This document shows positions 1 to 34,235 of a stretch of 64,000 bases of DNA, in pieces. This stretch comes from Candidatus Nomurabacteria bacterium (GTDB lineage: Bacteria > Patescibacteriota > Minisyncoccia > Phycocordibacterales > UBA5272), in assembly GCA_040376695.1 (NCBI GenBank), contig JBEIQD010000001.1:217029-281028 (forward strand), read 5' to 3'. Position 1 is the first letter of the stretch, and the number at the start of each line of letters is the position of its first letter. The notes under the pieces are model-generated. The model ran no database searches and was not told where the DNA came from. It was given only the letters and a program-made list of their open reading frames with translations. The translations under genes and the position numbers were made by a program.

Positions 1-572
1 ATAAGAGGGTACTGTCCAATTTCTCGGAGATACATCTGAATACTGTCGTGAGTACTATCTCCCCCAGGAAGCTTAAGCTCATCGTCCATATCAAGAAGGT
101 TTCCTCCTTCAAGAACATCGATACCTGCGCTTTCCATTTTCTGATACAACTCCTCGAGATACATGATATCTGTCTCAATCGTAGGGAAATAACGAATGAT
201 TTCATCATACGTAATAAAACCTCGTTCCTTACCTTTAGTTAGGAGTTCGAGCTCGTTCCCTTCGCGGGTTGTTATTTTCTTTGGCTTCTCGGCAATCTTT
301 GGCTTTGAAGGACCAGTCTTAATAGTAAATGCCTTTGGCTTATACTTTGGTTTTGTTTCAACCTTTGGAACTTTTTTCGTAGCAACTTTCTTCACTACTT
401 TCTTTGGAGATTTTGCTATGACTTTCTTCGTTGTTTTCTTTACAGATGTCTTTTTGACAGATGTCACCTTTTTCTTTGGTGCAACTTTTTTCGCTTGAGC
501 TTTTTTTGCTGCTGGTTTTACCGCAGTTTTTTTCTGTACACTTTTTGATTTTGAAGAAACTTTTTTCGCCAT
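1..572 (-). CDS. rpoD: RNA polymerase sigma-70 factor RpoD, N-terminal part (gene runs off the window start). Not in the ORF track because it has no in-window stop.
   Basis: Minus-strand ATG at 572..570 opens a frame that stays open to position 1. Translation: MAKKVSSKSKSVQKK... (about 95 aa Lys-rich) ...ELELLTKGKERGFITYDEIIRYFP...DSIQMYLREIGQYPL, which matches sigma-70 regions 1.1 and 1.2. The gene sits immediately downstream of dnaG, the classic dnaG-rpoD arrangement. Confidence 0.85.
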   Translation of the reverse strand, partial: MAKKVSSKSKSVQKKTAVKPAAKKAQAKKVAPKKKVTSVKKTSVKKTTKKVIAKSPKKVVKKVATKKVPKVETKPKYKPKAFTIKTGPSKPKIAEKPKKITTREGNELELLTKGKERGFITYDEIIRYFPTIETDIMYLEELYQKMESAGIDVLEGGNLLDMDDELKLPGGDSTHDSIQMYLREIGQYPL

Positions 573-638
573 AATGCGTGTACTCGCGATTATACCACAA
601 TTACACAAAAAGGTCGAGGTACATCAAAAAATAATAAT

Positions 639-2267
639 TTACGGATTACGGCTTTTTGCGTGAGTAGAAAGTTCTTGAAGTAACTTTTTCTCATCTTCTG
701 TTCCCTTTTCAACTAACAGTAATTTAGCGTGTAAATCGGCGTACTTTTCCTTATCTATTATTTTTTTATATGTCGTAATAAGATCACGTAGATAAATATC
801 TACGTCTCCTGTTCCTTTCTCTTCAAGTTTAAACATTTCTTCCTGGAGTACTGCTTCTGGGAATTGTGTTAGATCAAGAGACAGCTCAACAAATTTTGGA
901 TCATCTAGTTTTCCTTTAAGAGTCGCAAAAGCAATCATCTCTCGCAATAATCGTTCCTTGCTATGCATCACATCTTGCACACGCACGGCAGCAACTTCAG
1001 GCTGAGAAAGTACTCCTCGAGATAATTCTTCCATGAGCGTAGTATTTGGAATACCTGAAACATCAGCAATTATTTTTATGAAATGAGCCCTATCAATAGG
1101 TGATTGAATAGCTCTCACAAATGGAAGCACCTCCGTCACAATACGTTTTCCTTGAGCACGAGGTTCTGGTTCTGCAGCAATACTACTTGTAAGCATGACT
1201 TCTACAATATGCTTTTTCTTCGTGACACTTTCTTTCCATGCGCTTGGGTTTTCACGTATAAGATCTGCAGGGTCTTTTGTTCCCAAATCAGTAACGACAT
1301 ACACGTCCAATCCTCCAAGGAGACATAAAAGAGCTGTCTTTTTGAGGGCAGACTGTCCTGCGGTGTCAGCGTCGAAAGAAAGAATCACCGTATCACAAAA
1401 ACGTTTTATAAGGTTGATATGTTCGTCCGTAAACGCTGTACCTGAAACAGCAACAGTATTGTGAATTCCCGCTTGGTAACTCATACATAAATCCATTTGT
1501 CCCTCAACAACCACAACTGATTTAGAGATAGACATCTCTTTCTTTGCAGTATCATATCCAAAAAGAATTTTTGATTTGTGATACAACGCCGTCTCTGGAG
1601 TATTCACATATTTACCCTGAGCCACGGATGGATCCACCAGTGACGGAAGGATTCTCCCTGAATACCCGACTGTTGCCCCTGATACGTTTCGTATAGGAAA
1701 CATCACCCGTCCACGAAATCGATCATAATAGCCTTTCTCTGTTTTTATCATAATACCTGCCGCCTCCATCTCTTCTGGTTGATACCCTTTTGATGCTAAT
1801 AGAATAAACAAATCTCGCCATTCATTTTTTGCATATCCAACGTGAAAAGTTTTTATAGTTTCTTCAGTAAGACCTCGCTCTAAAAGATACTGTTTTGCTT
1901 CTGGGCTGTTGTGTAAATTCTTTTCAAAGTGTTCAGTGACATCTTTAAGGATAGCTATAAGACGAGATTCTTCTTTATTCTTTTCAGAGTTAGTAAGAAC
2001 CACTCCTGCGCGATCAGCTAGAATTTTCAATGCCTCAAAAAAAGGAATATTTTCAATTTTCTCAACAAACGTAAAAATATCCCCGTGTGCTTGGCATCCG
2101 AAACAATGAAAATTCTTTCGTTCTGGAGATACGTAAAATGATGGCGTGCGCTCATTATGGAATGGACAGCGGGCACGGAATTGGGCGCCTGACTTTTCCA
2201 AACGAATATAGGTTGAGACCACTTCCGTAATGGACAGATTTTCCTTGATCTGGTCTTTTGGGTTCAT
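639..2267 (-). CDS. dnaG: DNA primase DnaG
   Basis: CHC2 zinc finger (CPFHNERTPSF...CFGCQAHGD), Toprim region (VVVVEGQMD, SFDADTAG) and a DnaB-interaction C-terminus; 542 aa. Confidence 0.92.
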   Translation of the reverse strand: MNPKDQIKENLSITEVVSTYIRLEKSGAQFRARCPFHNERTPSFYVSPERKNFHCFGCQAHGDIFTFVEKIENIPFFEALKILADRAGVVLTNSEKNKEESRLIAILKDVTEHFEKNLHNSPEAKQYLLERGLTEETIKTFHVGYAKNEWRDLFILLASKGYQPEEMEAAGIMIKTEKGYYDRFRGRVMFPIRNVSGATVGYSGRILPSLVDPSVAQGKYVNTPETALYHKSKILFGYDTAKKEMSISKSVVVVEGQMDLCMSYQAGIHNTVAVSGTAFTDEHINLIKRFCDTVILSFDADTAGQSALKKTALLCLLGGLDVYVVTDLGTKDPADLIRENPSAWKESVTKKKHIVEVMLTSSIAAEPEPRAQGKRIVTEVLPFVRAIQSPIDRAHFIKIIADVSGIPNTTLMEELSRGVLSQPEVAAVRVQDVMHSKERLLREMIAFATLKGKLDDPKFVELSLDLTQFPEAVLQEEMFKLEEKGTGDVDIYLRDLITTYKKIIDKEKYADLHAKLLLVEKGTEDEKKLLQELSTHAKSRNP

Positions 2268-2350: not shown

Positions 2351-5300
2351 TTACTTACCTTCTTGCTTTCCTCGGAGCCCTGTTCCGGCTGGGATAAGTC
2401 GTCCAATGATAACGTTTTCCTTAAGTCCTCGTAGCTGATCCATTTGTCCACGAGTAGACGCTGTGATAAGCACACGAGTAGTGTTCTGGAATGATGCTGA
2501 AGAGAGCCATGAGTCAGTAGAGAGAGCAACGTCTGTGATACCAAGTACCAAACTACGCCCCTTCGCTTCTGTCTTTCCTTCTTCCTTCATACGAGCATTC
2601 TCATAACGGAATGTTGAGATTTCAACCACATCAGACTGCGTAAAGCGAGTGTCTCCTGGGTTTGTAATCTTAACGCGTCCAAACATCTGCTTGATGATAA
2701 CTTCAACGTGCTTACGAGTGATCGCAGCTCCTTGTAGTTCATACACCTTGTTGATTTCAGAAACGATGTACTCTGCGGCAACGTCCTTACCAGCGTATGT
2801 GAAGAGTTCGTCAATATCAGCAGAACCATCAGTCATCATCTGACCTTTTTCTACTACATCTCCAACCTTCACAATTACCTGACGGCGATATGGCACAGTG
2901 TATTCCACCTGCTTACCACTCTTGTTACCCTTTGCTCCATCATCATCTCCGATAATAACAATAACCTTTTCTTTCCCTTCATCACGGATACCCATGATTT
3001 CACCTGCTTCGTGAGCGATGATAGCTGGGTTCTTTGGTGCACGTCGTTCGAAGATTTCTTCAACACGAGGAAGACCTTGTGTGATGTCGACTCCCGAAAC
3101 TCCTCCGGCGTGGAATGTACGCATAGTAAGCTGTGTTCCTGGTTCACCGATGGCTTGCGCAGCAACGATACCAACTGCTTCTCCAAGGTCTACCTTCTTG
3201 TTACGTCCCATGTCTAGTCCGTAACACTTCTGACAGATACCATGTAGTGACTGACAAGCAAGTGGTGAGAATACATTTGCTTCCTCCACTCCTGCGTTTT
3301 CAATTACAAGTGCATCGTCCTTGTTAACAAGGTGATTCTTCTTGTAAAGAACTTTACCGTCTACAACAATATCTTCAGCGAGTACACGTCCACGAACGTT
3401 CTTTGAAATTGGAACTTCGATACCGAGCGCGTTTTCCTTTCGGATTGTCTTACTCTCTTTTGTCCCACAATCAATTTCTGTAATGATCGCGTCCTGAGCC
3501 ACATCCACCAAACGACGAGTAAGGTATCCGGCCTGCGCTGTTTTAAGAGCGGTGTCAGAGTTACCCTTACGAGCTCCGTAGGTAGTAATGAAGTACTCTA
3601 GTGGTGTCAAACCTTCCTTGTATGATGAGATAACTGGGAAGTCGATGTTACGCCCTGAGTTGTTCACGATGATACCCTTCATACCTGACATCTGAATAAC
3701 CTGAGCGATAGAACCTCGGGCACCAGACGTAATAAGGTCATACACTGATCCATGCTTTTCGAAAGACTCTGGAACAAGCTTTTCAATTCTTGAACGAATT
3801 GCCTGCCATACTTCGATAGTCTTTGAGTAACGCTCTTCAGATGATAGAAGACCTTCTTCGTAGTCAGCTTCAACACGTGCTGCGTTATCCCAACCTTCAG
3901 CAATAAGAGCTGGCTTTTCCTTTGGAACCTTAACAGCATCAATATTCCATGTTGTTCCTGAAATAGTTGCATACTTGTAACCGAATGCTTTAATCTTGTC
4001 GATTACAGATGGTGCAGTCTCAAGACCATACGTAAGAATAACTTGATCAATAATAAGGTTCATCTTCTTCACAGCTACTTCATCATTCATGTATGGGAAG
4101 TCAGACGGGAATACAGAGTTAAAGAGAAGACGTCCAATTGTTGTTTCAAATGGCTTACCTTCAAACTGTGCATACTTTGCTTTTTCAGTTGAAGCCATCA
4201 CCCACACCTTTGCGCGGAATGATACAACACCGAAGTCATACGCTGTGATTGCTTCGTTTGGAGAAGCGAAGTACTTACCTTCACCCTTCTCTCCTTCAAT
4301 CATCTTTGTCATCCAGTACACACCAAGCACCATATCCATTCGAGGGTTAACGATTGAGTCTCCAGATCCAGGGCGGAGTAGGTTTCGGTTCGCCGCCATA
4401 AGCGTACGAGCTTCTTCCTGCGCTGCTACTGAAAGTGGAAGGTGAACGGCCATCTGGTCACCGTCGAAGTCAGCGTTAAAGGCCTGACATACAAGCGGGT
4501 GAAGCTGAATAGCATTACCTTCAATAAGACGAGGGTTGAACGCCTGAATACCAAGTCTGTGAAGTGTAGGAGCGCGGTTCAAGAGTACGTACTTTCCAGC
4601 AATACACTCTTCAAGAATTGCCCACACTTCTGGGATACTGTCTTCGATCAACTTATTCGCACCACGAATGTTGAACGCAAGTTCTCGTTCGAGAAGCTTT
4701 GAGATAACGAATGGCTTGAAGAGTTCAAGTGCCATGTGCTTTGGAAGTCCACACTCATTTAACTGAAGTGAAGGACCAACCACAATAACTGAACGAGCTG
4801 AATAGTCCACACGCTTTCCAAGAAGATTTCCGCGGAGAAGACCTTGCTTACCCTTAAGGTTATCAGAAAGTGACTTAAGCTGACGCTTCTGTGACTGACT
4901 CATAACAGCATCCTGTCCATGACGAGCTGAGTTGTCGATAAGAGCATCGATAGCTTCCTGGAGAATACGCTTTTCGTTACGCAAAATAACATCAGGCGCT
5001 CCAATTTCCATCAACTTCTTAAGACGGTTGTTACGGTTGATTACACGACGGTAAAGGTCGTTCACATCAGATGCCGCGTAGCGTCCTCCTTCAAGAGCAA
5101 CCATAGGACGAATCCCTGGAGGAATAACTGGAATAACTGTCATGAACATCCATTCTGGACGAATGCCAGCGTTCTTAAACGCACGAACAAGAGAAAGTCT
5201 CTTTTCCGCTTTTTCACGCTCAAGCGCACCAGCTTTTTCAAGGCGAAGCACAATAGCAGCTTCGAGCTCTGAAAGATCAATTGTCTTAAAGATTTCGTAG

Positions 5301-5953
5301 ATTGCTTCCGCTCCAATTCCTGCTTCGAACATTGTTCCATACTTCATTGAGAAGCGGTGGTATGTAAGTTCATCAAAAATCTTCCAAGGTTTAATTTCTT
5401 CAATTTCCTTCTTTGTTGCTGTCAAAAGTTCACGGAGTTTATCCTGTGTCTTTTCATCGGCTGCTGACTTTACCTTTGCCTTGAATTCAGATTCAAGATT
5501 TGAAAGAAGTTCTTCCTTCGCTGCCTGATTAACTGACTTCACAACATATCCAGCAAAGTACACAACCTTCTCAACGTCAGATACTGGCTGAGCCAAAATG
5601 TTTGCAATACGAGATGGAACAGTACGTAGGAACCAGATGTGTGCAACCGGAGAAGCAAGTTCAATGTGCCCCATTCGTTCACGACGAACGATAGACTTTG
5701 TTACTTCAACCCCACACTTCTCACACACAATATCCTTATAACGGATACGTCGGTATTTTCCACAATAACATTCATAGTCCTTTTCTGGACCGAAGATACG
5801 CTCATCAAAGAGACCGTATCGTTCTGAACGTCCTGTTCGGTAGTTAATCGTCTCTGGCTTCGTAACCTCACCAAATGACCAAGAACGGATAGCTTCTGGA
5901 GAAGCAATCTTGATCGCGAGACCGTCGAAATTATTTGTATCGATTGTTTTCAT
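2351..5953 (-). CDS. rpoC: DNA-directed RNA polymerase subunit beta-prime
   Basis: 1200 aa; NADFDGDQMAVHLP catalytic motif, zinc-binding Cys clusters, trigger-loop region. Confidence 0.97.
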   Translation of the reverse strand: MKTIDTNNFDGLAIKIASPEAIRSWSFGEVTKPETINYRTGRSERYGLFDERIFGPEKDYECYCGKYRRIRYKDIVCEKCGVEVTKSIVRRERMGHIELASPVAHIWFLRTVPSRIANILAQPVSDVEKVVYFAGYVVKSVNQAAKEELLSNLESEFKAKVKSAADEKTQDKLRELLTATKKEIEEIKPWKIFDELTYHRFSMKYGTMFEAGIGAEAIYEIFKTIDLSELEAAIVLRLEKAGALEREKAEKRLSLVRAFKNAGIRPEWMFMTVIPVIPPGIRPMVALEGGRYAASDVNDLYRRVINRNNRLKKLMEIGAPDVILRNEKRILQEAIDALIDNSARHGQDAVMSQSQKRQLKSLSDNLKGKQGLLRGNLLGKRVDYSARSVIVVGPSLQLNECGLPKHMALELFKPFVISKLLERELAFNIRGANKLIEDSIPEVWAILEECIAGKYVLLNRAPTLHRLGIQAFNPRLIEGNAIQLHPLVCQAFNADFDGDQMAVHLPLSVAAQEEARTLMAANRNLLRPGSGDSIVNPRMDMVLGVYWMTKMIEGEKGEGKYFASPNEAITAYDFGVVSFRAKVWVMASTEKAKYAQFEGKPFETTIGRLLFNSVFPSDFPYMNDEVAVKKMNLIIDQVILTYGLETAPSVIDKIKAFGYKYATISGTTWNIDAVKVPKEKPALIAEGWDNAARVEADYEEGLLSSEERYSKTIEVWQAIRSRIEKLVPESFEKHGSVYDLITSGARGSIAQVIQMSGMKGIIVNNSGRNIDFPVISSYKEGLTPLEYFITTYGARKGNSDTALKTAQAGYLTRRLVDVAQDAIITEIDCGTKESKTIRKENALGIEVPISKNVRGRVLAEDIVVDGKVLYKKNHLVNKDDALVIENAGVEEANVFSPLACQSLHGICQKCYGLDMGRNKKVDLGEAVGIVAAQAIGEPGTQLTMRTFHAGGVSGVDITQGLPRVEEIFERRAPKNPAIIAHEAGEIMGIRDEGKEKVIVIIGDDDGAKGNKSGKQVEYTVPYRRQVIVKVGDVVEKGQMMTDGSADIDELFTYAGKDVAAEYIVSEINKVYELQGAAITRKHVEVIIKQMFGRVKITNPGDTRFTQSDVVEISTFRYENARMKEEGKTEAKGRSLVLGITDVALSTDSWLSSASFQNTTRVLITASTRGQMDQLRGLKENVIIGRLIPAGTGLRGKQEGK

Positions 5954-5976: not shown

Positions 5977-8900
5977 TTATAAAGATGATTCACCAAGTAT
6001 TGTCTCCCGCTCTGACTCGATCTTTCGTGGTCCAACATCAAGTGAAAGTCCTCGAAGTGTGTTCAACATCACAGTAAATGATGCAGGAGTATTTGGCTCC
6101 TTCACGTCTTCTCCCTTGATAATCGAATCAAACGCTGCAGAACGTCCTACGATATCGTCAGACTTAACTGTTAGCATTTCACGCAAAATGTGTGCTGCTC
6201 CGTAACCTTCGAGTGCCCATACTTCCATTTCCCCGAATCTCTGTCCTCCTCCCTGAGCCTTTCCACCAAGTGGCTGCTGCGTAATAAGAGAGTAAGGGCC
6301 GATTGAACGCATGTGAATCTTATCTTCAACCATATGGTGAAGTTTCATGATGTACATAACACCAACGGCAGTTTCCTGATTGAAAGCCTCACCCGTTCGT
6401 CCGTCGTAAAGTTGTACTGTTCCCTGTTCGTTGTATCCAGCCTTTACAAGCTCTTCCTTGATTTCAGTTTCAGTAGCTCCCTGGAATGAAGGCACAATAG
6501 CCTGGTATCCAAGCGCATCAGCTGCAAGACCAAGGTACATTTCAAGAATCTGTCCAAGGTTCATACGTGATGGCACACCAAGCGGCGTAAGCAAGATGTC
6601 GATAGGAGTTCCATCTTTATCAAATGGCATTTCTTCTACCGGAAGAATTGTTGAGATAACTCCCTTGTTACCGTGACGTCCAGCAAGCTTATCTCCAACA
6701 GAGATGTTACGGATCTGCGCAACCTCAATGTGAATACGCTTGATGATTCCACTTTCTAGCTGATCACCTCGTTCACGAGAGAATACCTTCACACCAATAA
6801 TACGTCCACGCTTTCCGTGATCTAGTCGAAGTGAAGAGTCCTTCACGTCGCGAACCTTTTCACCGAAGATAGAACGTAGAAGTCTCTCTTCTGGGGTAAG
6901 TTCAGTTTCTCCCTTTGGAGTGATCTTACCTACCAAAATATCTCCTGGACGAACTTCAGCTCCAATGCGGATGATTCCTTCTTCGTCAAGGTTCTTAAGC
7001 TTGTTTTCTCCAACGTTTGGAATGTCGTGTGTTGTTACTTCAGCTCCAAGCTTTGTATCACGAACGTTACATACGAATTCTTCGATGTGAATTGAAGAGA
7101 ACTTACTTTCACGAACAAGACGCTCTGAAAGAATGATGGCATCTTCATAGTTCGCACCGTTCCAACTCATGAACGCAACACGAATGTTGTGTCCAAGTGC
7201 GATCTGACCATTGTCAGATGTTGCAGCATCAGCAAGTACTTGTCCTTTCTTTACCTTTTCTCCAAGAGACACGATTGGTCGCTGGTGGAATAGGTTGAAA
7301 GCGTTTGTACGTGCGAAGTTGATAAGACTGTATTCATATTCCTTCTTTTCAGATTTGATGATTACTTTCTTTGCATCGACATACTTAACTTCACCTGCTT
7401 CGTCCGCCAAAATAAGACGTCCGATGTGCTTTGCAGCTTCTCCTTCCATACCAGTAGCAACAAATGGTGCTTCTGGAATCATAAGTGGAACTGCTTGTTT
7501 CTGCATGTTTGAACCCATGAGTGCGCGGGTTGCTTCATCGTGCTCGAGGAATGGAATCATAGATGTTGCAACTGAAAACGCTTGGTTTGTTGCTACGTCG
7601 ATGTACTCAACAGCTGATCGATCAACGAGTGCAGGCTGTCCCTGTACACGAGATTCAATCTGTTCGTTTACGAGTTTTCCGTCCTTGTCGTATTCATTTC
7701 CAGCATGTGCAATAATATGACGCTCTTCTTCAAGTGCGTTCATGTACACGATATCCTTTGTGATCTTTCCTTTCTCTACCTTAACGTATGGAGTTTCGAT
7801 AATACCGAAGTCGTTGATACGTGCGTAGTTTGAAAGACGTAGAATAAGACCAATGTTTGGACCTTCTGGAGTGTGGATTGGACACACGCGGCCATAGTGA
7901 GATGTGTGAACGTCACGAACTTCAAAACCTGCTCGTTCACGAGTAAGACCGCCGGGACCGAGGGCTGAAAGTGTACGAAGGTGCTCTACTTCTGCAAGCA
8001 AGTTTTCCTGGTTCATGAACTGAGAAAGCTGGTTTGTTGTAAAGAATTCCTTAATACGTGCCTGAAGTGGGCGCTGGTTGATGATAGCGATAGGAAGTGT
8101 TGTATCAGTATCGATAACAGACATCTTGTCCTGAATGTTTCGCTTCATCTGCATCATACCTGTACGAATCTTCTGTGCCATCATTTCTCCCACGTAACGA
8201 ACACGACGTGAACCGAGGTGGTCAATATCGTCTTCCTGCGCGTTTGGATTATTGTTGAGCTCAATCATGTGATTGATAATCTCAATCATGTCTTCCTTAG
8301 AAAGAGTACGGCGAGCTGCATCCTTATCAGTCTTTGGGTCAATTGGCTTACCGAAACGCTTGTTGAAACGAAAACGTCCAACTGGAGAGAGGTCATAGCG
8401 TTCTGGAGAGAGGATAGAGTCGATATGTTCCTTTGCGTTCTCAGGAGTTGCAAGGTCTCCATCACGAAGACGCTTGTAAATTTCGATGTATGCATCGTGA
8501 ATTGTCTTGATTTCATCACGTTCTACAAGAGCTGACATGAGAGGTCCCGCTACTTCGTGACCTTCAAAAGCCTTCTTGATCTGGTCATCTGTTGTAAGAC
8601 CAAGCACACGGAGGAGTGCAATAGCAGAAAACTTACGCTTCTTGTCGATACGTACGTAAATACCACCATCACTTTCAGTTCCAAGTTCAATCCAAACACC
8701 ACGTGAAGGAATGATCTTTGCACCGAAATACTTCTTACCTTTCGTTTCTTCAGAATCGAAGAAAACACCGAACGATCGGGCAAGCTGAGGAACCACTACA
8801 CGTTCAACACCGTTGATGATGAATGTTCCGTGAACAGTCATGAGCGGAAAATCAGCCATGAAAATCTCCTGTTCCTTAACAGTATTCAAGATTTTGTTTG

Positions 8901-9228
8901 TAAGCTTTACACGAGCGCGAAGTGGCGCTTCGTAGGTAAGCTTGTTTTCCTTAGCATACACTTCTTCGTACTTTGGTGCTGAAAGTTCAAAAGAAATGAA
9001 TTCAAGATCAAACTTCTTTTCTGAGTAGTCACGCAATGGTGAAAATTCACGAAAGATTTCTACAATTCCCTTTTCAGTAAGGTCCTTGTATGAAAGGATT
9101 TGGTTTTCGACGAGGTTAGGAAGTTTAGTAAGCGGTTCTCGATATTTCGAGAACACTTTTTGCGGGCGCACGGTTAAGTGTGATGATTTAGGCATAACGC
9201 AAATGTTGCCAAAGTGACTCTCTTTCAC
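5977..9228 (-). CDS. rpoB: DNA-directed RNA polymerase subunit beta
   Basis: 1083 aa; conserved beta-subunit blocks (GRHGNKGVIS, SALGPGGLTRERAGFEVRDVH etc.). Confidence 0.97.
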   Translation of the reverse strand: MKESHFGNICVMPKSSHLTVRPQKVFSKYREPLTKLPNLVENQILSYKDLTEKGIVEIFREFSPLRDYSEKKFDLEFISFELSAPKYEEVYAKENKLTYEAPLRARVKLTNKILNTVKEQEIFMADFPLMTVHGTFIINGVERVVVPQLARSFGVFFDSEETKGKKYFGAKIIPSRGVWIELGTESDGGIYVRIDKKRKFSAIALLRVLGLTTDDQIKKAFEGHEVAGPLMSALVERDEIKTIHDAYIEIYKRLRDGDLATPENAKEHIDSILSPERYDLSPVGRFRFNKRFGKPIDPKTDKDAARRTLSKEDMIEIINHMIELNNNPNAQEDDIDHLGSRRVRYVGEMMAQKIRTGMMQMKRNIQDKMSVIDTDTTLPIAIINQRPLQARIKEFFTTNQLSQFMNQENLLAEVEHLRTLSALGPGGLTRERAGFEVRDVHTSHYGRVCPIHTPEGPNIGLILRLSNYARINDFGIIETPYVKVEKGKITKDIVYMNALEEERHIIAHAGNEYDKDGKLVNEQIESRVQGQPALVDRSAVEYIDVATNQAFSVATSMIPFLEHDEATRALMGSNMQKQAVPLMIPEAPFVATGMEGEAAKHIGRLILADEAGEVKYVDAKKVIIKSEKKEYEYSLINFARTNAFNLFHQRPIVSLGEKVKKGQVLADAATSDNGQIALGHNIRVAFMSWNGANYEDAIILSERLVRESKFSSIHIEEFVCNVRDTKLGAEVTTHDIPNVGENKLKNLDEEGIIRIGAEVRPGDILVGKITPKGETELTPEERLLRSIFGEKVRDVKDSSLRLDHGKRGRIIGVKVFSRERGDQLESGIIKRIHIEVAQIRNISVGDKLAGRHGNKGVISTILPVEEMPFDKDGTPIDILLTPLGVPSRMNLGQILEMYLGLAADALGYQAIVPSFQGATETEIKEELVKAGYNEQGTVQLYDGRTGEAFNQETAVGVMYIMKLHHMVEDKIHMRSIGPYSLITQQPLGGKAQGGGQRFGEMEVWALEGYGAAHILREMLTVKSDDIVGRSAAFDSIIKGEDVKEPNTPASFTVMLNTLRGLSLDVGPRKIESERETILGESSL

Positions 9229-12796: not shown

Positions 12797-14134
12797 TTAT
12801 CGACCTGGTACAAACGTAAGAGCGTGTCCTAGTTTAGTTCCGCGTCCTGTACGACCAATACGGTGAACGTATGTTTCGTAGTTGTTAGGCACATCGTAAT
12901 TAACAACAAGGTTAATATCGTTGATATCAAGCCCACGTGCTGCAACGTCAGTTGCAATCACTACCTGCACCTTACCTGATCCAAGTGCCTTAACAGCTCG
13001 CTCTCGCTCGCGGTTATGCATGTCTCCGTGAAGAGCAAGCGCTTTGAATCCACGCTTTGAAAGTTCTTCTGCAAGACCATCCACATGACGCTTCATTTCT
13101 CGGAAGATAAGTACCTTTGAGTACTCTGGTTTAAGAAGAATCTCGTGAAGAGCTTCAACCTTTCCAGCATCCCCATTAACGCGAACAACATCCTGCATAA
13201 CAGATGACGCTGTATCACGACTCTTGATAGAGATAGTAACTGGATCCTTAAGGAAGTCAGTACAGAGTCTCTTAATTTCTGGAGAAAATGTAGCTGAGAA
13301 GAATAGTCCCTGCTTTGCTTTTGGCATAGCACCTAGAATAGAACGCATGTCGTCGATGAATCCCATATCAAGCATACGATCCGCTTCGTCAAGTACAATA
13401 CTGTCAAAGTAATCCATCTTGATCTTTCCACGTTCGATAAGGTCCATGACACGTCCTGGAGTACCGATAACGGCATTCACTCCAAGTTCGAGTTCACGAA
13501 TCTGTCGCATAATTGGTGCACCTCCCACACACGGTACAGAGAAAAGCTTCATACCACGAGTAAACGCGATAAATTCTGCTTCCACCTGAAGAGCAAGCTC
13601 TCGTGTTGGTGTAAGAATCATCATCTTATGATTGTTATCAGCAACAAGCTTGTTGATAAGAGGAATAAGAAAGGCCGCAGTCTTTCCTGTTCCTGTTGAG
13701 GCAATACCAATCACATCCTTACCTTCAAGAACAACAGGGATAGCCTGGTCCTGAATTGGAGATGGAGTGATAAGTCCTTTTGCCGTTAGGTTTGCTGATA
13801 GAAGTTCAGCGATACCAAAGTCAGTAAACTTATGCTTTGCAGTATAGTTGTCTGTTTCAGTAACACCAGCTTCTTTGTTAATAAAAAGTTTTTCATCAAT
13901 GTAATCCTTTCTGAATCCACGCTTTGGATTAAATGAACGAGCGCCGCCTTGAGCTGGACCACGTCCAAATCCTCCACGCGCTGGGCCACGAGATGAACCT
14001 CCGCGAGAATAGCCTCCGTCGTTTGAACGAGAGCCTCCACGTGGTGCACGAGTCTCAGATGAGAAACGTGACGAAGAACGATTGTGTGGTCGTGCATCAG
14101 AAGAAGACGAACCACCTGTTGTGATTGTATACAT
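12797..14134 (-). CDS. DEAD-box ATP-dependent RNA helicase with an N-terminal Arg/Gly/Ser-rich tail
   Basis: Q-motif region, Walker A ASTGTGKT, DEAD (VLDEADRML), SAT and HRIGRTGR motifs; an RGG-like low-complexity N-terminus of about 75 aa. Confidence 0.9.
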   Translation of the reverse strand: MYTITTGGSSSSDARPHNRSSSRFSSETRAPRGGSRSNDGGYSRGGSSRGPARGGFGRGPAQGGARSFNPKRGFRKDYIDEKLFINKEAGVTETDNYTAKHKFTDFGIAELLSANLTAKGLITPSPIQDQAIPVVLEGKDVIGIASTGTGKTAAFLIPLINKLVADNNHKMMILTPTRELALQVEAEFIAFTRGMKLFSVPCVGGAPIMRQIRELELGVNAVIGTPGRVMDLIERGKIKMDYFDSIVLDEADRMLDMGFIDDMRSILGAMPKAKQGLFFSATFSPEIKRLCTDFLKDPVTISIKSRDTASSVMQDVVRVNGDAGKVEALHEILLKPEYSKVLIFREMKRHVDGLAEELSKRGFKALALHGDMHNRERERAVKALGSGKVQVVIATDVAARGLDINDINLVVNYDVPNNYETYVHRIGRTGRGTKLGHALTFVPGR

Positions 14135-25664: not shown

Positions 25665-26294
25665 CTACTGTATCGCACTCTCAGAGGTACTAACAATCGC
25701 TCGTTCAATTGGATACGCGTACACAGAACCACATGAAGCAAACCCACGAGAAATAATCTGTCTGTAGGTAGGTGTTTTATTAACAAGTACAGTAGCGCAT
25801 CGATACTCCCCTCCACCTAAATCCATACGCATATTAAAGGTAGAAGTTTGCCCAGTGTCAGTATTCCCCGCAGAATCAATACGTGAAAAAGGGGTAATAG
25901 CATAGTTACTAACCGAACTATCGAAAATACTCGATGCAGCGCACTTTATGTCATTTAAGGAAAGAGAACTTAAACCACCCGCTACACGCTGTACGTTTAT
26001 TTTATCCAGCACCATTTGACTTGTTACTAGATTATTATATTGAAAGATACCAAGACCTGTTTCTTGATCGTAATACTGATCATCTATTGCCGTAGCACAC
26101 ATGAGTCCATTATCAGCAGCGTAGTAAGCAATTTGACTCAAGCGAGAGAGTCTAGAAAAATATAGCTCCTTACTAAGAATAATAGAGATGCTCGTAGCAA
26201 TAGTTAGAATAATAACGCACACAATAAGAGTCAGTGGGAGGACAAACCCCTTAGCACGTGTATCTATTATTTTCTTAAGAGTAAATAGTTTCAT
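25665..26294 (-). CDS. PilX-like pilus-assembly/minor pilin protein
   Basis: Hydrophobic N-terminal segment (KGFVLPLTLIVCVIILTIA) without the classic cleavage motif; last gene of the pilin sub-cluster. Confidence 0.45.
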   Translation of the reverse strand: MKLFTLKKIIDTRAKGFVLPLTLIVCVIILTIATSISIILSKELYFSRLSRLSQIAYYAADNGLMCATAIDDQYYDQETGLGIFQYNNLVTSQMVLDKINVQRVAGGLSSLSLNDIKCAASSIFDSSVSNYAITPFSRIDSAGNTDTGQTSTFNMRMDLGGGEYRCATVLVNKTPTYRQIISRGFASCGSVYAYPIERAIVSTSESAIQ

Positions 26295-26299
26295 GTTCG

Positions 26300-26950
26300 T
26301 TATGCTCGTGCGTGGAGAAAATCTACAATCTTAACCTGATGTAGATATCCGTTCTGACGCTTAAAGGTTATTGTAACCGTAACACGAAGATCGTCATTAT
26401 AATTTTGGTCTGGACCGGTAAATGTTGGTATTGAAGTAATAGACACAGCTCGACTAAAATTAGTTAATGTGTACCCTGGCCCGCTCCCGTGGGCTCCTGT
26501 ACAAACATAAATACTAGTTGCGTCTTCTAGAGAGAGGGTATTGCAACCTGCTTGATTACTTACATACTTCGTTGGATCAAAATCTTCATTAGCTGTCATA
26601 TCAATGAAATCATATGCACATCCCGTAGGGTTATCTACCTCGTAACATGACGCACCTTGAGCATTAGAAGCTAATCGTGCACGAAACACTCGCCAAGCCG
26701 CTTGAGCTGAAGTTTCTGCATTAATAGGTGTACATGCAGCTGTGGTGGATTGAATGCAGCGTATATACACAGAGTCTTGCTGGTGACGTAAAAGTTCTAT
26801 TGCCTCCTGTGCGAGATATGTTGCAATAAGAGTGTCCTTTGTAAGTCGTGCATACGTTGAAGCGTTCGATGCAACAGTAAGCGGACCAAGAATTACCATC
26901 GTAATGATCATTGTAGACACAAGTGTTTCAACAAGTGTAAAGCCGCGCAT
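26300..26950 (-). CDS. Type IV minor pilin (prepilin-type N-terminal cleavage/methylation domain)
   Basis: MRGFTLVETLVSTMIITMVIL: G/FTLVE class III signal. Confidence 0.75.
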   Translation of the reverse strand: MRGFTLVETLVSTMIITMVILGPLTVASNASTYARLTKDTLIATYLAQEAIELLRHQQDSVYIRCIQSTTAACTPINAETSAQAAWRVFRARLASNAQGASCYEVDNPTGCAYDFIDMTANEDFDPTKYVSNQAGCNTLSLEDATSIYVCTGAHGSGPGYTLTNFSRAVSITSIPTFTGPDQNYNDDLRVTVTITFKRQNGYLHQVKIVDFLHARA

Positions 26951-26995
26951 AGATCGTGCTTGTTTTTTGAAAAGGAAATTGAAAAATATCATAGG

Positions 26996-27634
26996 TTAAT
27001 TGTCTAGAGCACGAGATGATCCACTTGTTTGAACACTAAAGGTTACAGCGGGGATCGTCTTCTTTCTTGGAATTGTCACCCCTGATATAACCATAGTAAT
27101 AAGTGGCTGATTATTGTCAGAAGCGCCAGCATAGTCAGCTGTTCCGGTTGTACTATGTAATCCATCACCATAAAAAGAAAGTGTTGTTATATTCACATCA
27201 CTTGAGGTGATCTGAAATGTTCTCACTGTCCCACCATATGGATACTCATTTTTATATAAAATCCCATTTGAAAGATAATATGCCACGCGGTCGAGGTTAA
27301 GGTTTGTTGTACCGTTCAAAGCAACGGTTGGCCTAAAGATAAGCACAGTACCCCCACTTGGGTAGTCACATCCTTTTCTAAGAGTTGTCATAGGAGTTGG
27401 GATGGCAGTGTCACAATAAAAACGTGAACCATACCGTATGTCACGTATGATCACTTCTGTTGCCAAGTTTACTCCATCAAGAATAGATTGTGTTTGTTCT
27501 AGTCGAGTGTTTACGACCTGTGCTGAAAAAAGTGCCCCTGTGGCAATGGTCATAACACTAATAAAAATTGCCATCGTAACAAGTAGTTCGATAAGAGTAA
27601 ACCCGCGAAGTGAAGATTTGTTTCTGTGTATCAT
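26996..27634 (-). CDS. Type IV minor pilin (GspH/PilV-like)
   Basis: LRGFTLIELLVTMAIFISVM prepilin signal. Confidence 0.75.
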   Translation of the reverse strand: MIHRNKSSLRGFTLIELLVTMAIFISVMTIATGALFSAQVVNTRLEQTQSILDGVNLATEVIIRDIRYGSRFYCDTAIPTPMTTLRKGCDYPSGGTVLIFRPTVALNGTTNLNLDRVAYYLSNGILYKNEYPYGGTVRTFQITSSDVNITTLSFYGDGLHSTTGTADYAGASDNNQPLITMVISGVTIPRKKTIPAVTFSVQTSGSSRALDN

Positions 27635-28302
27635 GGTGTAAGGTTGTCGCATCTACCGATATCATTTCTAATCATACCTGAACTAAATATTTGAACATTT
27701 CTAATATGCCCTAATAGAGGAGCTCGTGGAGAAAAGAGTTCAATACACGCCGCTCCATAACTGGTCGTAGTTGCATTGTTAATATAAATTGAAGGTACTG
27801 GGTTTGGTCGAGTGAAAGACACCGTAAGAGATTCAACGGCTGGAACATTTGATTCATTGCAAGTAAAAGGAAAACCTGTTCCAACACAGAGCCTATTAAC
27901 AAAATACCTATCAGGAAGTTTTGTTGTTGTCTTTGTTTCATTGAAAGGAACACCGTCCTCAAAAAGACTATTTCCTATTGCAATACCATATGGCTTCGGA
28001 ATACTAGCATCTACTGTGTCACCAAAAAGAACAAGTTGAGTCGATGAGGCTAAAGATATATACACACCATACCCACCGAGAGAACTATTGATTGAATCAA
28101 TTGCGCTCCCTCGAACTTGAGCTTCACGAATGAGGAGTGAAGTTGTGTGGGAAACATTAGCAAGTGTTAATCGTACCGCTGTTTCTGGGTATTTACTCAA
28201 AAGAACCGCCGTGAGAGTAACAATAACTGCCATACTGATACTTAATTCAACAAGAGTAAAGCCGCGCAAAGGAAAAAATACTTTGGAGGATTTCATATTC
28301 AT
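27631..28302 (-). CDS. Type IV minor pilin
   Basis: PLRGFTLVELSISMAVIVTL prepilin signal. Confidence 0.75.
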   Translation of the reverse strand: MNMKSSKVFFPLRGFTLVELSISMAVIVTLTAVLLSKYPETAVRLTLANVSHTTSLLIREAQVRGSAIDSINSSLGGYGVYISLASSTQLVLFGDTVDASIPKPYGIAIGNSLFEDGVPFNETKTTTKLPDRYFVNRLCVGTGFPFTCNESNVPAVESLTVSFTRPNPVPSIYINNATTTSYGAACIELFSPRAPLLGHIRNVQIFSSGMIRNDIGRCDNLTP

Positions 28303-28311
28303 ATAGTACCA

Positions 28312-29085
28312 CTAAGCAAAGAGTGAAGCGATGGAAAAAATGCCTATATCTGTGAACAAAACAATAAGAAACGCAGCCACAATAAATGGCACAAAAGGAA
28401 TTGCTGTATTCGTATTATGTTTCTTCCTTCTTTGGAGGTAAACGATAATACCGACCACAGCCCCTAACCATACAGAAATGAGAAGCACCGCGAGACCTTG
28501 TTCAATTCCAAAAAAAGCGCCGACGGCTAAGTATAAAAGAACATCTCCAAAACCAAGAGCTCGGCCCTTTGTAACTAACCAGATAATAAGAAATGGGAGT
28601 GCTACTACAAGTGGACCTAATAAGACTTCCACCCCTCCATAATGAACATATCTAATACCCAACATTACAATAGAAAGAAATGAGAAGAGCCCGAGAAAAA
28701 CAACAGGTACATATGAATGCTTATAATCATATAACGCTATCACTCCCAAAGAAATAAGGATGAGGGTGTAGTAGAAAAGCCACCACATAGCAACAACAGG
28801 TGCTGAACCAGCCAACATAAAATGATAGACCATCATAAACACCACCCCAAAGCCGATTTCAATGATAAGTGTCTCTATTCCGTACGGGACTTTACAGTAC
28901 TTACACTTTCCTTTAAGGAAGAGATAGGAAAGTACTGGTACCAAATCTGAAATGCGAAGTGCCTCTCCGCAGGAGAGGCACTTGCTACGTGACTGTATGA
29001 TTGGGGCAACGTTAAGACGAGTAGCTACAACTTGAACAAAACTCCCTATCGCAGCACCGTATAAGAATGATAGAAAATAGAACAC
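28312..29085 (-). CDS. pilD: Prepilin peptidase (A24 family)
   Basis: Polytopic membrane protein with CxxC...CxxC (CLSCGE...CKYCK) between TM1 and TM2 and conserved Asp residues. Confidence 0.85.
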   Translation of the reverse strand: MFYFLSFLYGAAIGSFVQVVATRLNVAPIIQSRSKCLSCGEALRISDLVPVLSYLFLKGKCKYCKVPYGIETLIIEIGFGVVFMMVYHFMLAGSAPVVAMWWLFYYTLILISLGVIALYDYKHSYVPVVFLGLFSFLSIVMLGIRYVHYGGVEVLLGPLVVALPFLIIWLVTKGRALGFGDVLLYLAVGAFFGIEQGLAVLLISVWLGAVVGIIVYLQRRKKHNTNTAIPFVPFIVAAFLIVLFTDIGIFSIASLFA

Positions 29086-29094
29086 TACAAGAAA

Positions 29095-29742
29095 CTAGTT
29101 AGTAAGGTCGTAGATACAGTTCGTGAGTGCACCAGTACATGTTGTTAAACCAGTGTCTGCAGGACCATTACCGAAGTCAGCAGAAGCTGATCCAGCTGGG
29201 TTTCCAGCATCGCCTGAACCAAAGTTACTTCGTACAACGGTACAAGCACTTGATGATGTACATACAGGAACCGCTGCACCTGACGTCGCATCTCCCATAC
29301 ATGGACGAGGACTACTTCCTGAAGCGGTTTGAACACCTCCACAGTCAGCGTCATCGTTTAATCCCTGGTTTCCAGCCTCAAGCTTTACACCAATATGGTA
29401 TCCCATGTAATTAGCTGTTCCTGAATCGAGGAAAGCTGCGTACATGTATTTATCACGCCCAATAGTAGAAGTTGCTGCGTTTGAAGGCATGTTTGGAATA
29501 TAACGAGGAACTAGGTCTTCGATGGCGCCAGGATATGTTCCTCCGTGGTCGTCAGCGTAAATACCAATTGCTGTCACAATTGAACGAAGGTCTGCAATCT
29601 TTTTTGCATCTCGTCCCTTCTTACGAGCTTCAGTAATTGGAGCTGCGATAACAGTTGATAGGAGACCAATGATTGCGATAACAACGAGAAGTTCAATCAA
29701 CGTGAATCCTCTTAGACCCTTTTTTGTAAGTGTTTGTAGCAT
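29095..29742 (-). CDS. pilA: Type IVa major pilin candidate
   Basis: KKGLRGFTLIELLVVIAIIGLLSTVI class III signal. The C-terminal half is G/S/A/T-rich with six Cys, and the gene is GC-richer than its neighbours. Confidence 0.8.
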   Translation of the reverse strand: MLQTLTKKGLRGFTLIELLVVIAIIGLLSTVIAAPITEARKKGRDAKKIADLRSIVTAIGIYADDHGGTYPGAIEDLVPRYIPNMPSNAATSTIGRDKYMYAAFLDSGTANYMGYHIGVKLEAGNQGLNDDADCGGVQTASGSSPRPCMGDATSGAAVPVCTSSSACTVVRSNFGSGDAGNPAGSASADFGNGPADTGLTTCTGALTNCIYDLTN

Positions 29743-29840
29743 AATTTTTTTCTATCTTTGTAGATATCTTAAGTATAGTACCCTTCGTCTAAAGCGCAAG
29801 GAATACCGGTGCAAAAGTGAAGAATAGCTGTGGATAAAAG

Positions 29841-31046
29841 CTATGAAATAGAAGCAGAAAGTGAGTACATCGGAAGAAGCACAGATGACACAAGAACTCC
29901 AACACCCAAACCAAGACCTACAATCATAGCTGGTTCAATCAATCCAATAACATTATCGATAGCTGTGTCGAGCTCTCGTTTATAGAACGTAGCAAGGTTC
30001 TTGAGGATATATCCAAGCTCTCCTGTTTCTTCACCGATACGAACCATTTGCACAAGAATATTCGGAACGAGCGGCTCTTCGTATAAAGCCTTTGAAAAGG
30101 CAACTCCAGATTGTACTTTTGCTGATACTCGTTTAAGTAAATCTTTATATACCACGTTATCAACAACAGCTGAGGTGATATCGATAGATCTCACGATAGG
30201 AACTCCACTAGAAAGCATAGTATTCATATTGTCTGCAAGTCGTGTAAGGAAAATTCTTTGATAGAGATTTTTAAACACGGGAGTTTTTGTTTTAATCTCA
30301 TCCATCTTGCGTGTCCCTTCTTCTGTTTGTATCCATCGATAAAAAAGCCAACCTCCAATAATCATTACAGGAAACACAATAATCCAGTACTTTACGAATA
30401 TCTCAGAAGTTCCAAGTACAATTTTTGTAATCATTGGTAGTTCAGCTCCCTGATCCGCAAACATCGCTGCCATTTTTGGAATAACGAACACGAACATACC
30501 AACCATAATCACAATAAATGTCCCCACCACGAACATTGGATATGTAAGTGCCTTCTTTACCTTCTGACGCAATTCATAATCACGATCGAGATAATCAGCT
30601 AAGTACAAGAATGATTCATTAAGCTTTCCACTCTCTTCTCCAGCTTTCACCATGTTCACATAAAAAGGAGAGAATAGTTCTGGACGCTTAGAGAGCGCAT
30701 CAGAAAGAGAAACACCAGATTCAATATCATCCGCCACACCAGTAAGCTGCCGCTGAAGTTCTTTGTTATCATTCTCAGCAGCAAGTAGACGAAAAGCTTT
30801 TAAAGCTGACACTCCGGCTTCAAAGAGTGTTGCAATCTGTCGAGAGAAAATAACAACATCTTTTGGTTTAATCTTTGCCTTGAAGAAAGAGAAGTTGAGG
30901 TTTACATCTTTACTTTTGTCTTTAATACTTACAACGCTCAATCCTCGCTTTTGAAGAAGCACTATTGCTGCGTCCTGTGAAGAAGCTTCTATTTCAGCTT
31001 CTGTTTTTGTTCCCTCTTGATTAATTGCTGTGTAGTGAAAAATCAT
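29841..31046 (-). CDS. pilC: Type IV pilus platform protein PilC (GspF family)
   Basis: 401 aa; two GspF repeats and three TM blocks. Confidence 0.85.
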   Translation of the reverse strand: MIFHYTAINQEGTKTEAEIEASSQDAAIVLLQKRGLSVVSIKDKSKDVNLNFSFFKAKIKPKDVVIFSRQIATLFEAGVSALKAFRLLAAENDNKELQRQLTGVADDIESGVSLSDALSKRPELFSPFYVNMVKAGEESGKLNESFLYLADYLDRDYELRQKVKKALTYPMFVVGTFIVIMVGMFVFVIPKMAAMFADQGAELPMITKIVLGTSEIFVKYWIIVFPVMIIGGWLFYRWIQTEEGTRKMDEIKTKTPVFKNLYQRIFLTRLADNMNTMLSSGVPIVRSIDITSAVVDNVVYKDLLKRVSAKVQSGVAFSKALYEEPLVPNILVQMVRIGEETGELGYILKNLATFYKRELDTAIDNVIGLIEPAMIVGLGLGVGVLVSSVLLPMYSLSASIS

Positions 31047-31048
31047 AG

Positions 31049-32137
31049 TTATAGTAGACGTTCAAATATATTTGTTCGTCGAGCAAAAGACATGGCATCA
31101 TCTTTTGTTACATCTCCGCGACGAACAAGCTCAGCAAGATTACGATCAAGGTCTATCATGCCGTCTTGTGACCCAGTCTCGATAAGTACGTCAATTTCAT
31201 GCGTTCTTCGTTCTCGAATAAGATTTGATATTGCTGGTGTATTAAGAAGAAGTTCAAATGCAGGAATAAGTCCACCAGATACGCGTGGAACAAGGCGTTG
31301 TGAAAGAATACCAATAAGCGATGAAGCAAGCTGCAAACGAATCTGATCTTGCTGATCAGCTGGGAACGTATCAATAATACGATCAACAGTTTGTGCAGCT
31401 GAGTTTGCGTGAAGTGTTGAAAGTACGAGGTGTCCTGTTTCAGCAGCAGTAACTGCAGCCGAAATAGTTTCTTTATCTCGCATCTCACCAATCATAATTA
31501 CATCAGCATCCTGACGGAACACGTGTGTAAGGGCTGTGTGGAAATCTTTTGTATCAACACCAACTTCACGTTGCTCAATAAGAGACTTATCCTGATCAAA
31601 ACGAAATTCAATGGGGTCTTCAATGGTTACAATGTGACGCTTTGCTTCACTGTTAATGAGTCCTATCATAGAAGCAAGCGTCGTTGATTTACCTTGCCCA
31701 ACAGGTCCCACCACAAGAAAGAATCCTTGGCGTTCACGAGCAATCTGAATAATCTGTTCTGGTAAATTAAGTTCAGAAATACTTTTTACTTTAGTAACAA
31801 GACGAAGGGCGATAGAAATAACTCCACGCTGAAACGAGGCGTTCCCACGAAGTCGATATTCTTTTGCATATTCATATGAAAAATCGATTTCTTGATTTAC
31901 AACAAACGAAGTAAGTGCTTTTTCACCAACCATTACACGCAAAAATCCAAGCGTATCTTCTGCGGTAAGTTCTCGTTTACGAGTAAGTGGAATCAAATCA
32001 CGATTAACACGAAGTGTAGGAAAAGAACCCACTGTCATATGCAGATCAGACCCCCCTTCTTTTACCAGCGACATAATAAGGTCTGCGAGCTCCGTTTCGT
32101 AGTTCATAGTTGAAGTATAGCAGTGTATGTAAAGCAA
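31049..32137 (-). CDS. pilT: Twitching-motility retraction ATPase PilT
   Basis: 362 aa; Walker A GPVGQGKST, Asp box, Walker B and His box of PilT-class secretion ATPases. Confidence 0.85.
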   Translation of the reverse strand: MLYIHCYTSTMNYETELADLIMSLVKEGGSDLHMTVGSFPTLRVNRDLIPLTRKRELTAEDTLGFLRVMVGEKALTSFVVNQEIDFSYEYAKEYRLRGNASFQRGVISIALRLVTKVKSISELNLPEQIIQIARERQGFFLVVGPVGQGKSTTLASMIGLINSEAKRHIVTIEDPIEFRFDQDKSLIEQREVGVDTKDFHTALTHVFRQDADVIMIGEMRDKETISAAVTAAETGHLVLSTLHANSAAQTVDRIIDTFPADQQDQIRLQLASSLIGILSQRLVPRVSGGLIPAFELLLNTPAISNLIRERRTHEIDVLIETGSQDGMIDLDRNLAELVRRGDVTKDDAMSFARRTNIFERLL

Positions 32138-34226: not shown

Positions 34227-34235
34227 ATACGTGAA

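Follow-up and report, generated by a model that had tools for sequence, protein, structure and literature searches.

Does the primary sigma factor of a Patescibacterial lineage begin with a long lysine-rich tail, and what might such a tail do? The question is raised by the gene rpoD at the left end of a 64,000-nucleotide stretch of contig JBEIQD010000001.1 (positions 217,029 to 281,028; referred to here as the window) from a Candidatus Nomurabacteria bacterium. A sequence-only reading of this stretch had described a histone H1-like extension of about 95 residues in front of sigma-70 region 1.1, and had placed it among a family of basic tails encoded nearby. Comparison with related genomes confirms that the tail is genuine and translated. 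We put the probability that it serves as a sequence-independent tether to polyanions (DNA) at roughly 0.55, slightly better than even. Coordinates given below are those of the window, and (-) marks the minus strand.

The lysine-rich extension of RpoD

The window contains the 5' part of rpoD (1..572 (-)), which by translation and Pfam codes for residues 1–190 of a 450-residue primary sigma factor; the gene runs past the window start. The start codon is the ATG at 572..570 (-), and translation of 572..1 reproduces exactly the lysine-rich peptide that had been quoted as the beginning of the protein. The acidic sigma-70 region 1.1 (residues 109–158; 99..248 (-)) matches Pfam PF03979 with an E value of 1.5e-11, and it is followed by the start of region 1.2, of which 15 residues are present (residues 176–190; 3..47 (-); PF00140). 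The complete 450-residue protein is present on a near-identical contig (L001:2589-3941), such contigs having been located by exact look-up of the DnaG protein, and it differs from the window sequence at one position (P to L). The full-length protein contains PF03979, PF00140, PF04542, PF04539 and PF04545 in order, corresponding to regions 1.1, 1.2, 2, 3 and 4. RpoD is a group 1 (primary) sigma-70 factor of the RpoD/SigA type. The NCBIfam model PRK09210 (Bacillus-type RpoD, 370 positions) matches residues 97–450 (E 1e-123), and among solved chains Firmicutes SigA proteins come closest, with alignments that start at residue 102 (8x6f_E) and residue 109 (7ckq_F). Because all three align only from these positions, the extension covers about 95–100 residues, in agreement with the length given earlier. 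No model or solved structure was found that covers it.

The lysine-rich N-terminal extension as delimited here comprises residues 1–105 (258..572 (-)) and is predicted to be disordered, as judged from its composition and from AlphaFold. It contains 38 lysines, one arginine, three glutamates and no aspartate, giving a net charge of +36, and it is followed by region 1.1 and its linker (residues 106–175) with a net charge of -11. Lysine makes up 36% of the tail, compared with a background of 6.9% in 12,000 residues taken from other proteins of the window (P ~5e-18 by a naive binomial calculation), and alanine, serine, threonine and proline together account for another 37%. In an AlphaFold2 model based on an alignment of 86 sequences, residues 1–100 have predicted local distance difference test (pLDDT) values below 50, and the helices of region 1.1 are formed from residue 103 onward.

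The C-terminal domain of histone H1 is disordered and rich in lysine together with alanine, serine, threonine and proline, and it is almost devoid of acidic and aromatic residues. The RpoD tail resembles this domain, as well as Hc1 and Hc2, in its lysine content of ~35%, its Ala/Ser/Thr/Pro component, its predicted disorder and the presence of one SPKK motif. The resemblance is compositional only. The description as histone H1-like holds for composition and disorder; it does not extend to the fold, since the winged-helix globular domain of H1 (Linker_histone) is absent and neither Hc1 nor HC2 is matched. The tail also contains more valine and less alanine than H1, and it is carried by a sigma factor rather than by a chromatin protein. 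When the tail alone was compared with Pfam, no family was retrieved even at E<=10, and the whole protein gave only the sigma regions at E<=0.01.

A mis-called start would provide a different explanation, with a protein that starts close to region 1.1 and a lysine-rich frame that is an untranslated leader. A/G-rich DNA easily stays free of stop codons, so that an open frame says little by itself about translation. The only in-frame alternative starts 5' of region 1.1 are the GTG codons 36 and 60, both of which lie within the tail. The next ATG is codon 137, inside region 1.1, and there is no ATG, GTG or TTG between codons 60 and 137. Just upstream of the first ATG lies a sequence that resembles a promoter (TCGACC-17-TATAAT, extended by TG; 589..617 (-)), with a -10 element that ends 16 nucleotides before this codon. 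This predicts an mRNA leader of ~10 nucleotides, followed by A-rich first codons.

The frame was also compared across relatives. A genome-collection scan with DnaG yielded 62 loci in Patescibacteria metagenome-assembled genomes (MAGs), with DnaG identities of 44–85%; the genomes bear the labels Paceibacterota, Nomurabacteria or Parcubacteria, some of which are plainly loose. In 58 of the 62, as in the window, rpoD lies downstream of dnaG, a macromolecular-synthesis operon context. In every one of these 58 loci the frame is open for 75–166 codons 5' of region 1.1 and contains an in-frame ATG (conserved MAKK...) followed by a lysine-rich tail of 65–156 residues with 28–55 lysines; none of the proteins starts at region 1.1. 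The TATAAT is kept at the equivalent upstream position in most of them. Non-coding DNA would be expected to retain the ATG in frame in about one-third of cases, so its retention in 58/58 despite insertions and deletions is unlike non-coding DNA. Public gene callers likewise assign lengths of 440–503 residues to the RpoD proteins in the 120 nearest 90%-identity clusters, where those that are named are primary sigma factors, and all 120 clusters carry the tail.

Taken together, the lack of a usable start near region 1.1, the promoter-like -10 element upstream and the conserved in-frame ATG indicate that the tail is translated. With the conserved peptides and the substitution rates described below added to these observations, the mis-called start was rejected, and we regard it as very improbable. 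The comparison also bears out the suggestion that the RpoD tail is lineage-specific.

Three parts can be distinguished within the tail. The cap (residues 1–15, MAKKVSSKSKSVQKK; 528..572 (-)), with the conserved MAKKVSSQKKSVQKK, has a mean pairwise identity of 70% among 44 close orthologues. It is followed by a variable polycationic spacer (residues 16–72; 357..527 (-)) with a mean identity of 32%, whose 57 residues are spread by insertions and deletions over 154 alignment columns. The third part is the junction motif KPKYKPKAFTIKTGP (residues 74–88; 309..353 (-)), which is conserved to at least 90% in each column of the 44 orthologues. The whole junction (residues 73–105) has a mean pairwise identity of 78%, close to the 82% of region 1.1 (residues 106–175), and the core of the protein (residues 176–450) reaches 95%.

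The variability of the spacer, in length as well as in sequence, raises the possibility that it is a largely neutral low-complexity expansion, tolerated by the cell without being required, whose A-rich 5' coding sequence would at most aid initiation on a short-leader mRNA. The wide range of tail lengths, the short predicted leader, the A-rich first codons and the dispensability of the basic part of SigA from Mycobacterium tuberculosis (see below) are all in line with this. Against it stands the presence of the tail in all 58 genomes and all 120 nearest protein clusters, together with the conservation of the cap and junction. Although tails of close orthologues vary from 97 to 156 residues, their net charge is still +33 to +54. 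The cap and spacer pooled from 46 orthologues contain 35% lysine, 15% valine, 10.5% alanine, 10% serine, 10% threonine and 5% proline, and only 2.2% aspartate plus glutamate and 0.1% aromatic residues. A lysine codon can be converted to one for glutamate by a single transition, and the near-absence of acidic residues therefore points to selection on charge. This argues for a spacer that is selected for its charge rather than for its sequence, as far as can be judged from these alignments. The genome composition is not extreme (41% GC in the window), and the DNA shows no repeat of the kind that signals recent slippage: Tandem Repeats Finder detected no tandem repeats in 1..700, and recent slippage was rejected as the origin of the tail.

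The ratio of nonsynonymous to synonymous substitution rates (dN/dS) points in the same direction. For cap and spacer it is 0.08–0.50 in 19 alignable pairs, compared with 0.01–0.04 for the core, although the pairs were picked at >=60% tail identity and the estimate is thereby biased downwards. On this evidence we consider a largely neutral spacer unlikely. Within some pairs (L035/L042, L062/L063), dS was far lower in the tail than in the core, for example 0.09 compared with 1.44. This may reflect the choice of pairs, recombination, or a constraint that acts on the nucleotides of the 5' coding region.

To see how widely such tails occur, full-length RpoD was searched against 1.84 billion 50%-identity cluster representatives, and the best 150 matches were examined. 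At least 40 residues precede region 1.2 in 126 of these 150. Among the 126, the N terminus is strongly basic (net charge of at least +14 in 40 residues) in 24, moderately basic in 17 and neither in 85, with the first of these groups concentrated in the matches closest to the query. Lysine-rich N termini of primary sigma factors are thus recurrent, but not universal, in this part of sequence space. One cluster, P0208, with members labelled as Clostridia or Bacilli MAGs, contains a 537-residue RpoD with a very lysine-rich N-terminal segment (KKKVTPKKKGVKKVMLKKKVAPKKK...). Lysine-rich RpoD tails may therefore occur outside the Patescibacteria as well.

Possible roles of the tail in initiation

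In the RNA polymerase holoenzyme, region 1.1 fills the downstream-DNA channel and is expelled upon open-complex formation. Because region 1.1 occupies this channel, a tail with a charge of +36 at its N terminus would be positioned at the channel mouth. From there it could hold sigma or the holoenzyme on DNA, and it could help DNA to enter or stabilise the open complex. In free sigma, the tail might partly neutralise the acidic region 1.1. The junction motif KPKYKPKAFTIKTGP is likely to engage in a separate, specific contact. By analogy alone, a role as nucleic-acid anchors is plausible for the basic tails of the window. The sequences show that the RpoD tail exists, is translated and disordered, and has retained its charge and layout in relatives; DNA binding and any part in initiation are inferred.

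Parallels are known from Actinobacteria. H1-like lysine repeats are present in Streptomyces TopA, HrdB, Ku and HupS; Ku and HupB, the HupS homologue of mycobacteria, need their lysine-rich domain in order to interact with DNA (PMC7398561). Like those repeats, the RpoD tail is a lineage-specific, H1-like, low-complexity segment, and in both cases such segments are found on several nucleic-acid-handling proteins, including the housekeeping sigma factor. Unlike them, the RpoD tail has no regular PAKKA or AAKK repeat and a much higher lysine density, and its cap, spacer and motif stand immediately upstream of a canonical region 1.1. It also occurs in a different phylum, in a low-GC genome, and is of independent origin, with no homology detected. 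A second parallel is Streptomyces DdbA, in which an H1-like N-terminal domain that binds DNA is fused to a DksA-like domain that modulates RNA polymerase, and for which a coupling of DNA binding to transcription has been proposed (PMC3643593). Common to both is a lysine-rich, H1-like N-terminal part attached to a protein acting on RNA polymerase. In DdbA, however, the partner is DksA-like rather than a sigma factor, and the basic domain is built from regular S/T-A/T-A-K-K pentapeptide repeats.

Several observations weigh against a simple DNA tether. Polycations bind RNA, polyphosphate and acidic proteins as readily as they bind DNA. The dN/dS values for cap and spacer carry the downward bias mentioned above. 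The strict conservation of the junction suggests a specific partner, which goes beyond a purely electrostatic function. A further caution comes from the best-studied analogue, M. tuberculosis SigA, whose N-terminal segment is not dominated by lysine. Like RpoD here, SigA is a group 1 sigma factor in which an acidic stretch comes after a long, disordered extension at the N terminus, although the two tails have no sequence similarity and the core of RpoD is closest to Firmicutes SigA. The N terminus of the mycobacterial protein is disordered over ~225 residues, is phosphorylated and precedes an essential acidic stretch; no solved structure includes this N terminus, and it is absent from the paralogue SigB (PMC10011835). 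Removal of the first 132 residues left promoter binding (as measured by surface plasmon resonance), transcription in vitro and complementation unchanged, and only the acidic stretch 132–179 proved essential (PMC10011835). In the laboratory, a sigma factor can thus do without a basic tail.

The conservation of the junction also raises the possibility of another function, with the tail as a module for specific interaction with proteins or RNA. The junction would dock onto the RNA polymerase core or another factor, and the spacer would bind RNA or ribosomes or drive the formation of condensates; it might, for example, link initiation to the translation of leaderless mRNAs. A nearly invariant KPKYKPKAFTIKTGP beside a freely evolving spacer fits this possibility. 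So does a more distant clade (L050, L053-L055, L057, L058, L065) that has kept a lysine-rich RpoD tail in which the KPKYKPKAFTIKTGP junction is replaced by another conserved and highly charged segment, F[IV]NLKALTxKEKxEEKKRREIKNAKDKKERQKRI, with KEKxEEKKRREIKNAKDKKERQKRI as its charged part. Leaderless-type starts dominate in the lineage, and the ribosome-associated GTPase Obg has a similar C-terminal lysine-rich tail in three related genomes. Yet no partner was found for the junction motif, the motif matches no known family, and in the AlphaFold model it is without structure or contact (pLDDT ~48). Because that model leaves residues 1–100 disordered, the idea that the motif has a fold or forms a docking site was rejected. 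We therefore consider an interaction module of this kind unlikely as the main function, and a DNA tether remains the preferred explanation for the tail.

In the library that could be searched, no paper was found on sigma tails or on SET proteins of Patescibacteria (candidate phyla radiation, CPR). The tailed RpoD proteins are already public, annotated simply as sigma factors. The tail can be viewed as a counterpart, evolved independently in Patescibacteria, of the basic and disordered N termini that primary sigma factors have in Actinobacteria, with a distinct architecture of cap, spacer and motif. Lysine-rich tails on DNA-handling proteins were known before, and current understanding is not overturned. 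Patescibacteria have tiny genomes with few regulators, and the workings of their transcription machinery are barely known. A polycationic module of about 100 residues with an invariant motif, present on the only housekeeping sigma factor, offers a clonable handle on lineage-specific initiation. As an independent evolutionary replay, its comparison with HrdB and SigA could reveal the purpose of basic disordered sigma tails.

Basic segments elsewhere in the window

The sequence-only reading had also pointed to a lysine-rich tail on a SET protein. The gene concerned (50629..51228 (-)) is assigned by its domain to the SET-domain lysine methyltransferases (Pfam SET PF00856, E 1.1e-21, residues 65–161). 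Its true start is likely to be Met-6, and the tail at residues 6–53 (51070..51213 (-)) contains 15 lysines in 48 residues with a net charge of +12. The tail is lysine-rich in all 18 close orthologues (65–85% identity) found in a metagenome scan, with conserved KQSKILKKG...LPDHHFK, and homologues below 50% identity begin straight at the SET domain without a tail. The best solved matches of the protein are KMT2 SET domains. The catalytic motifs NHAC and YDYG are intact and stand as ARYCNHACE and EIVYDYG in the alignment with the KMT2C SET domain. After the SET domain, a CxCx4H read off the sequence resembles a post-SET motif.

Downstream of the SET gene, an open reading frame (ORF) at 50190..50300 (-) codes for a Lys/Ala micro-protein of 36 residues, MAAKKKAAKKVAKKAVKKAAKKATKKVAKKKSAKRA, which is an (AAKK)n array. 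The AAKK units are encoded by a 12-nucleotide tandem repeat (50211..50288; 6.5 copies, 80% matches), and the gene is flanked by a promoter-like site (50341..50313 (-)) and a terminator-like hairpin (50173..50138 (-)). In having tandem lysine-containing repeats the micro-protein is similar to the AAKK-type tails of Actinobacteria, and it has no Pfam or NCBIfam match to Hc1 or HC2. Orthologues of 33–46 residues with conserved ends (MAAKKKA...AKRA) occur at 14 of the 15 loci with enough DNA downstream of SET, and this range of lengths is consistent with changes in repeat number. The gap between the two genes is 204–343 nucleotides in 11 loci and 1.3–1.8 kb in three; one locus is without the micro-protein.

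One possibility is that the RpoD tail and the (AAKK)n micro-protein are primarily substrates of the SET methyltransferase, in which case methylation would regulate sigma or nucleoid function in a chromatin-like manner. There are precedents for such pairs: cpnSET of Chlamydia pneumoniae interacts with both Hc1 and Hc2, and the former, a chlamydial H1-like protein, is methylated by it; Go1-SET of Methanosarcina mazei methylates MC1-alpha (PMC3980110). As in those cases, a small SET enzyme is encoded along with a small, very basic protein of the DNA-binding type. Also in favor are the intact catalytic motifs, the enzyme's own lysine-rich tail, a micro-protein gene located 200–350 nucleotides downstream of SET in most loci, and the occurrence of tailed RpoD, SET with micro-protein and tailed helicase on one contig in two other genomes (contigs of 775,158 bp and 182,078 bp).

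The differences are considerable. In comparison with the cpnSET–Hc1 pair, Hc1 is a much larger protein than the micro-protein, a lysine-rich tail is present on the SET enzyme here, and the adjacency is explained by synteny. The two genes sit in a block, hsp20-valS-SET-micro-secA-mur, that is syntenic as a whole, so that their adjacency says little about coupling. The SET and micro-protein genes each have promoter-like and terminator-like signals of their own, which makes them separate transcription units, and rpoD lies 50 kb from the SET gene. The synteny and the separate transcription units led to adjacency being downgraded as evidence of coupling; the three loci with the wider spacing and the one locus without the micro-protein also speak against the substrate idea. 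Methylation, according to established enzymology, leaves the positive charge of lysine in place, and an arginine-rich tail such as that of the helicase described below cannot serve a lysine methyltransferase. NUE, from C. trachomatis, failed to methylate Hc1 (PMC3980110). The tailed SET enzyme was found only in close relatives (65–85% identity) and the tailed RpoD in many 50%-identity clusters, which is a weak argument because the SET scan reaches close relatives only.

With these points considered, methylation appears an improbable primary purpose for the RpoD tail and the micro-protein, judging from the genes themselves, and we continue to favor a DNA tether for the former. The SET enzyme and the (AAKK)n peptide nevertheless constitute a candidate enzyme–substrate pair for endogenous protein-lysine methylation in bacteria. 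A more far-reaching proposal is a minimal chromatin-like layer in Paceibacteria-type CPR bacteria, in which a DNA-anchored SET enzyme would methylate lysines of the H1-like 36-residue peptide as well as of the sigma tail, and the tail with KPKYKPKAFTIKTGP would act as a regulated global transcription switch. We consider this a long shot. If true, such a switch would operate in cells that are without most classical regulators and have mostly leaderless mRNAs.

The third basic tail is carried by a DEAD-box RNA helicase (12797..14134 (-); PF00270, E 4e-45; PF00271, E 3e-32). The CshA, DbpA and RhlE models align to residues 100–442, placing the start of the core at about residue 100. The Arg/Gly/Ser-rich N-terminal tail, previously put at about 75 residues, measures 77 (residues 1–77; 13904..14134 (-)) and contains 13 arginines, 16 glycines and 15 serines. 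It is present in 120/120 close homologues, with median counts of R13, G14, S21 and K3, and its ends are conserved as a cap, MYTITTGG, and a junction, FNAKRGFKKD. Basic, Gly/Arg-rich disordered extensions of helicases are of the RNA-binding kind, and the extension of RhlE is C-terminal. The helicase here is like the RhlE/CshA type in having such an extension, but unlike RhlE it has it at the N terminus, and it is rich in Ser, Arg and Gly, a chemical class different from that of the lysine-rich tails. Its layout of cap, variable low-complexity segment and junction matches that of the RpoD tail, and its Ser/Arg/Gly chemistry recalls eukaryotic RGG/SR regions.

Basic tails do recur in the window, as had been proposed: the SET tail (18/18), the micro-protein (14/15) and the helicase tail (120/120) are all conserved. 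The notion of a single lineage-specific family did not survive the comparison. Three unrelated compositional classes are found, namely the K/V/A/S/T/P-rich RpoD tail without a DNA repeat, the (AAKK)n micro-protein and the R/G/S-rich, RGG/SR-like helicase tail, and each basic element has its own conserved cap and junction. When the four basic tails or elements were compared with Pfam, no family was matched even at E<=10. Homology to H1, Hc1, Hc2 or another family was rejected, as Pfam and NCBIfam gave no hits. The sequences thus suggest chemically distinct, non-homologous classes of tails on a few nucleic-acid-handling proteins.

Elsewhere, basic segments are rare. The terminal-charge outliers among the 68 ORFs of the window are the micro-protein, RpoD and SET, and among ~780 ORFs scanned in related DNA the only other strongly basic segments are those of ribosomal protein S9 and Obg. 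The lysine-rich C-terminal tail of Obg, for example KKAPAKKVVVKKVAKKVTKKVVVKKKAKK, was seen in three more distant relatives (L059:8998-10227, L062:8976-10055, L063:8976-10055). The Obg of the window organism itself (L001:4578-5582, 334 residues) is without such a tail.

Promoters and other features of the window

At the left end of the window, the genes are arranged as rpoB (9228..5977), rpoC (5953..2351), dnaG (2267..639) and rpoD, all on the minus strand. Gene starts in the window look leaderless and are almost devoid of Shine-Dalgarno-like motifs, for example those of dnaG (2267), gatC (23596), ligA (25601), secA (49924) and the micro-protein (50300). Promoter-like boxes were counted in the window and 45 related loci for genes with at least 50 nucleotides of upstream spacer, the orthologous loci not being independent samples. 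A TATAAT-like box ends 3–25 nucleotides before the ATG in 175 of 334 genes, with a sharp peak at 6–8 nucleotides (88 genes), and alignment on the -10 element reveals a TG extension and a weak -35. Promoters with an extended -10, a weak -35 and mostly leaderless transcripts form a setting in which extra non-specific contacts with DNA could matter. A link between this promoter architecture and a need for the RpoD tail is speculative.

Some further features were observed. Two adjacent tRNA-Ser genes (42649..42736 (-) and 42751..42838 (-)) both score above the Rfam tRNA threshold; according to ARAGORN, one has the anticodon ACT, with an unusual A at the wobble position, and the other GCT. An RNase P RNA of class A (59786..60070 (-)) is ~285 nucleotides long compared with a 367-position model and scores 115.7 bits, which suggests a reduced RNA. 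Finally, a type IV pilus-like cluster at 25665..36692 (-) contains ORFs that, judged from their translations only, code for pilin-like prepilins and for prepilin-peptidase-like, PilC-, PilT/PilB- and PilM-like proteins.

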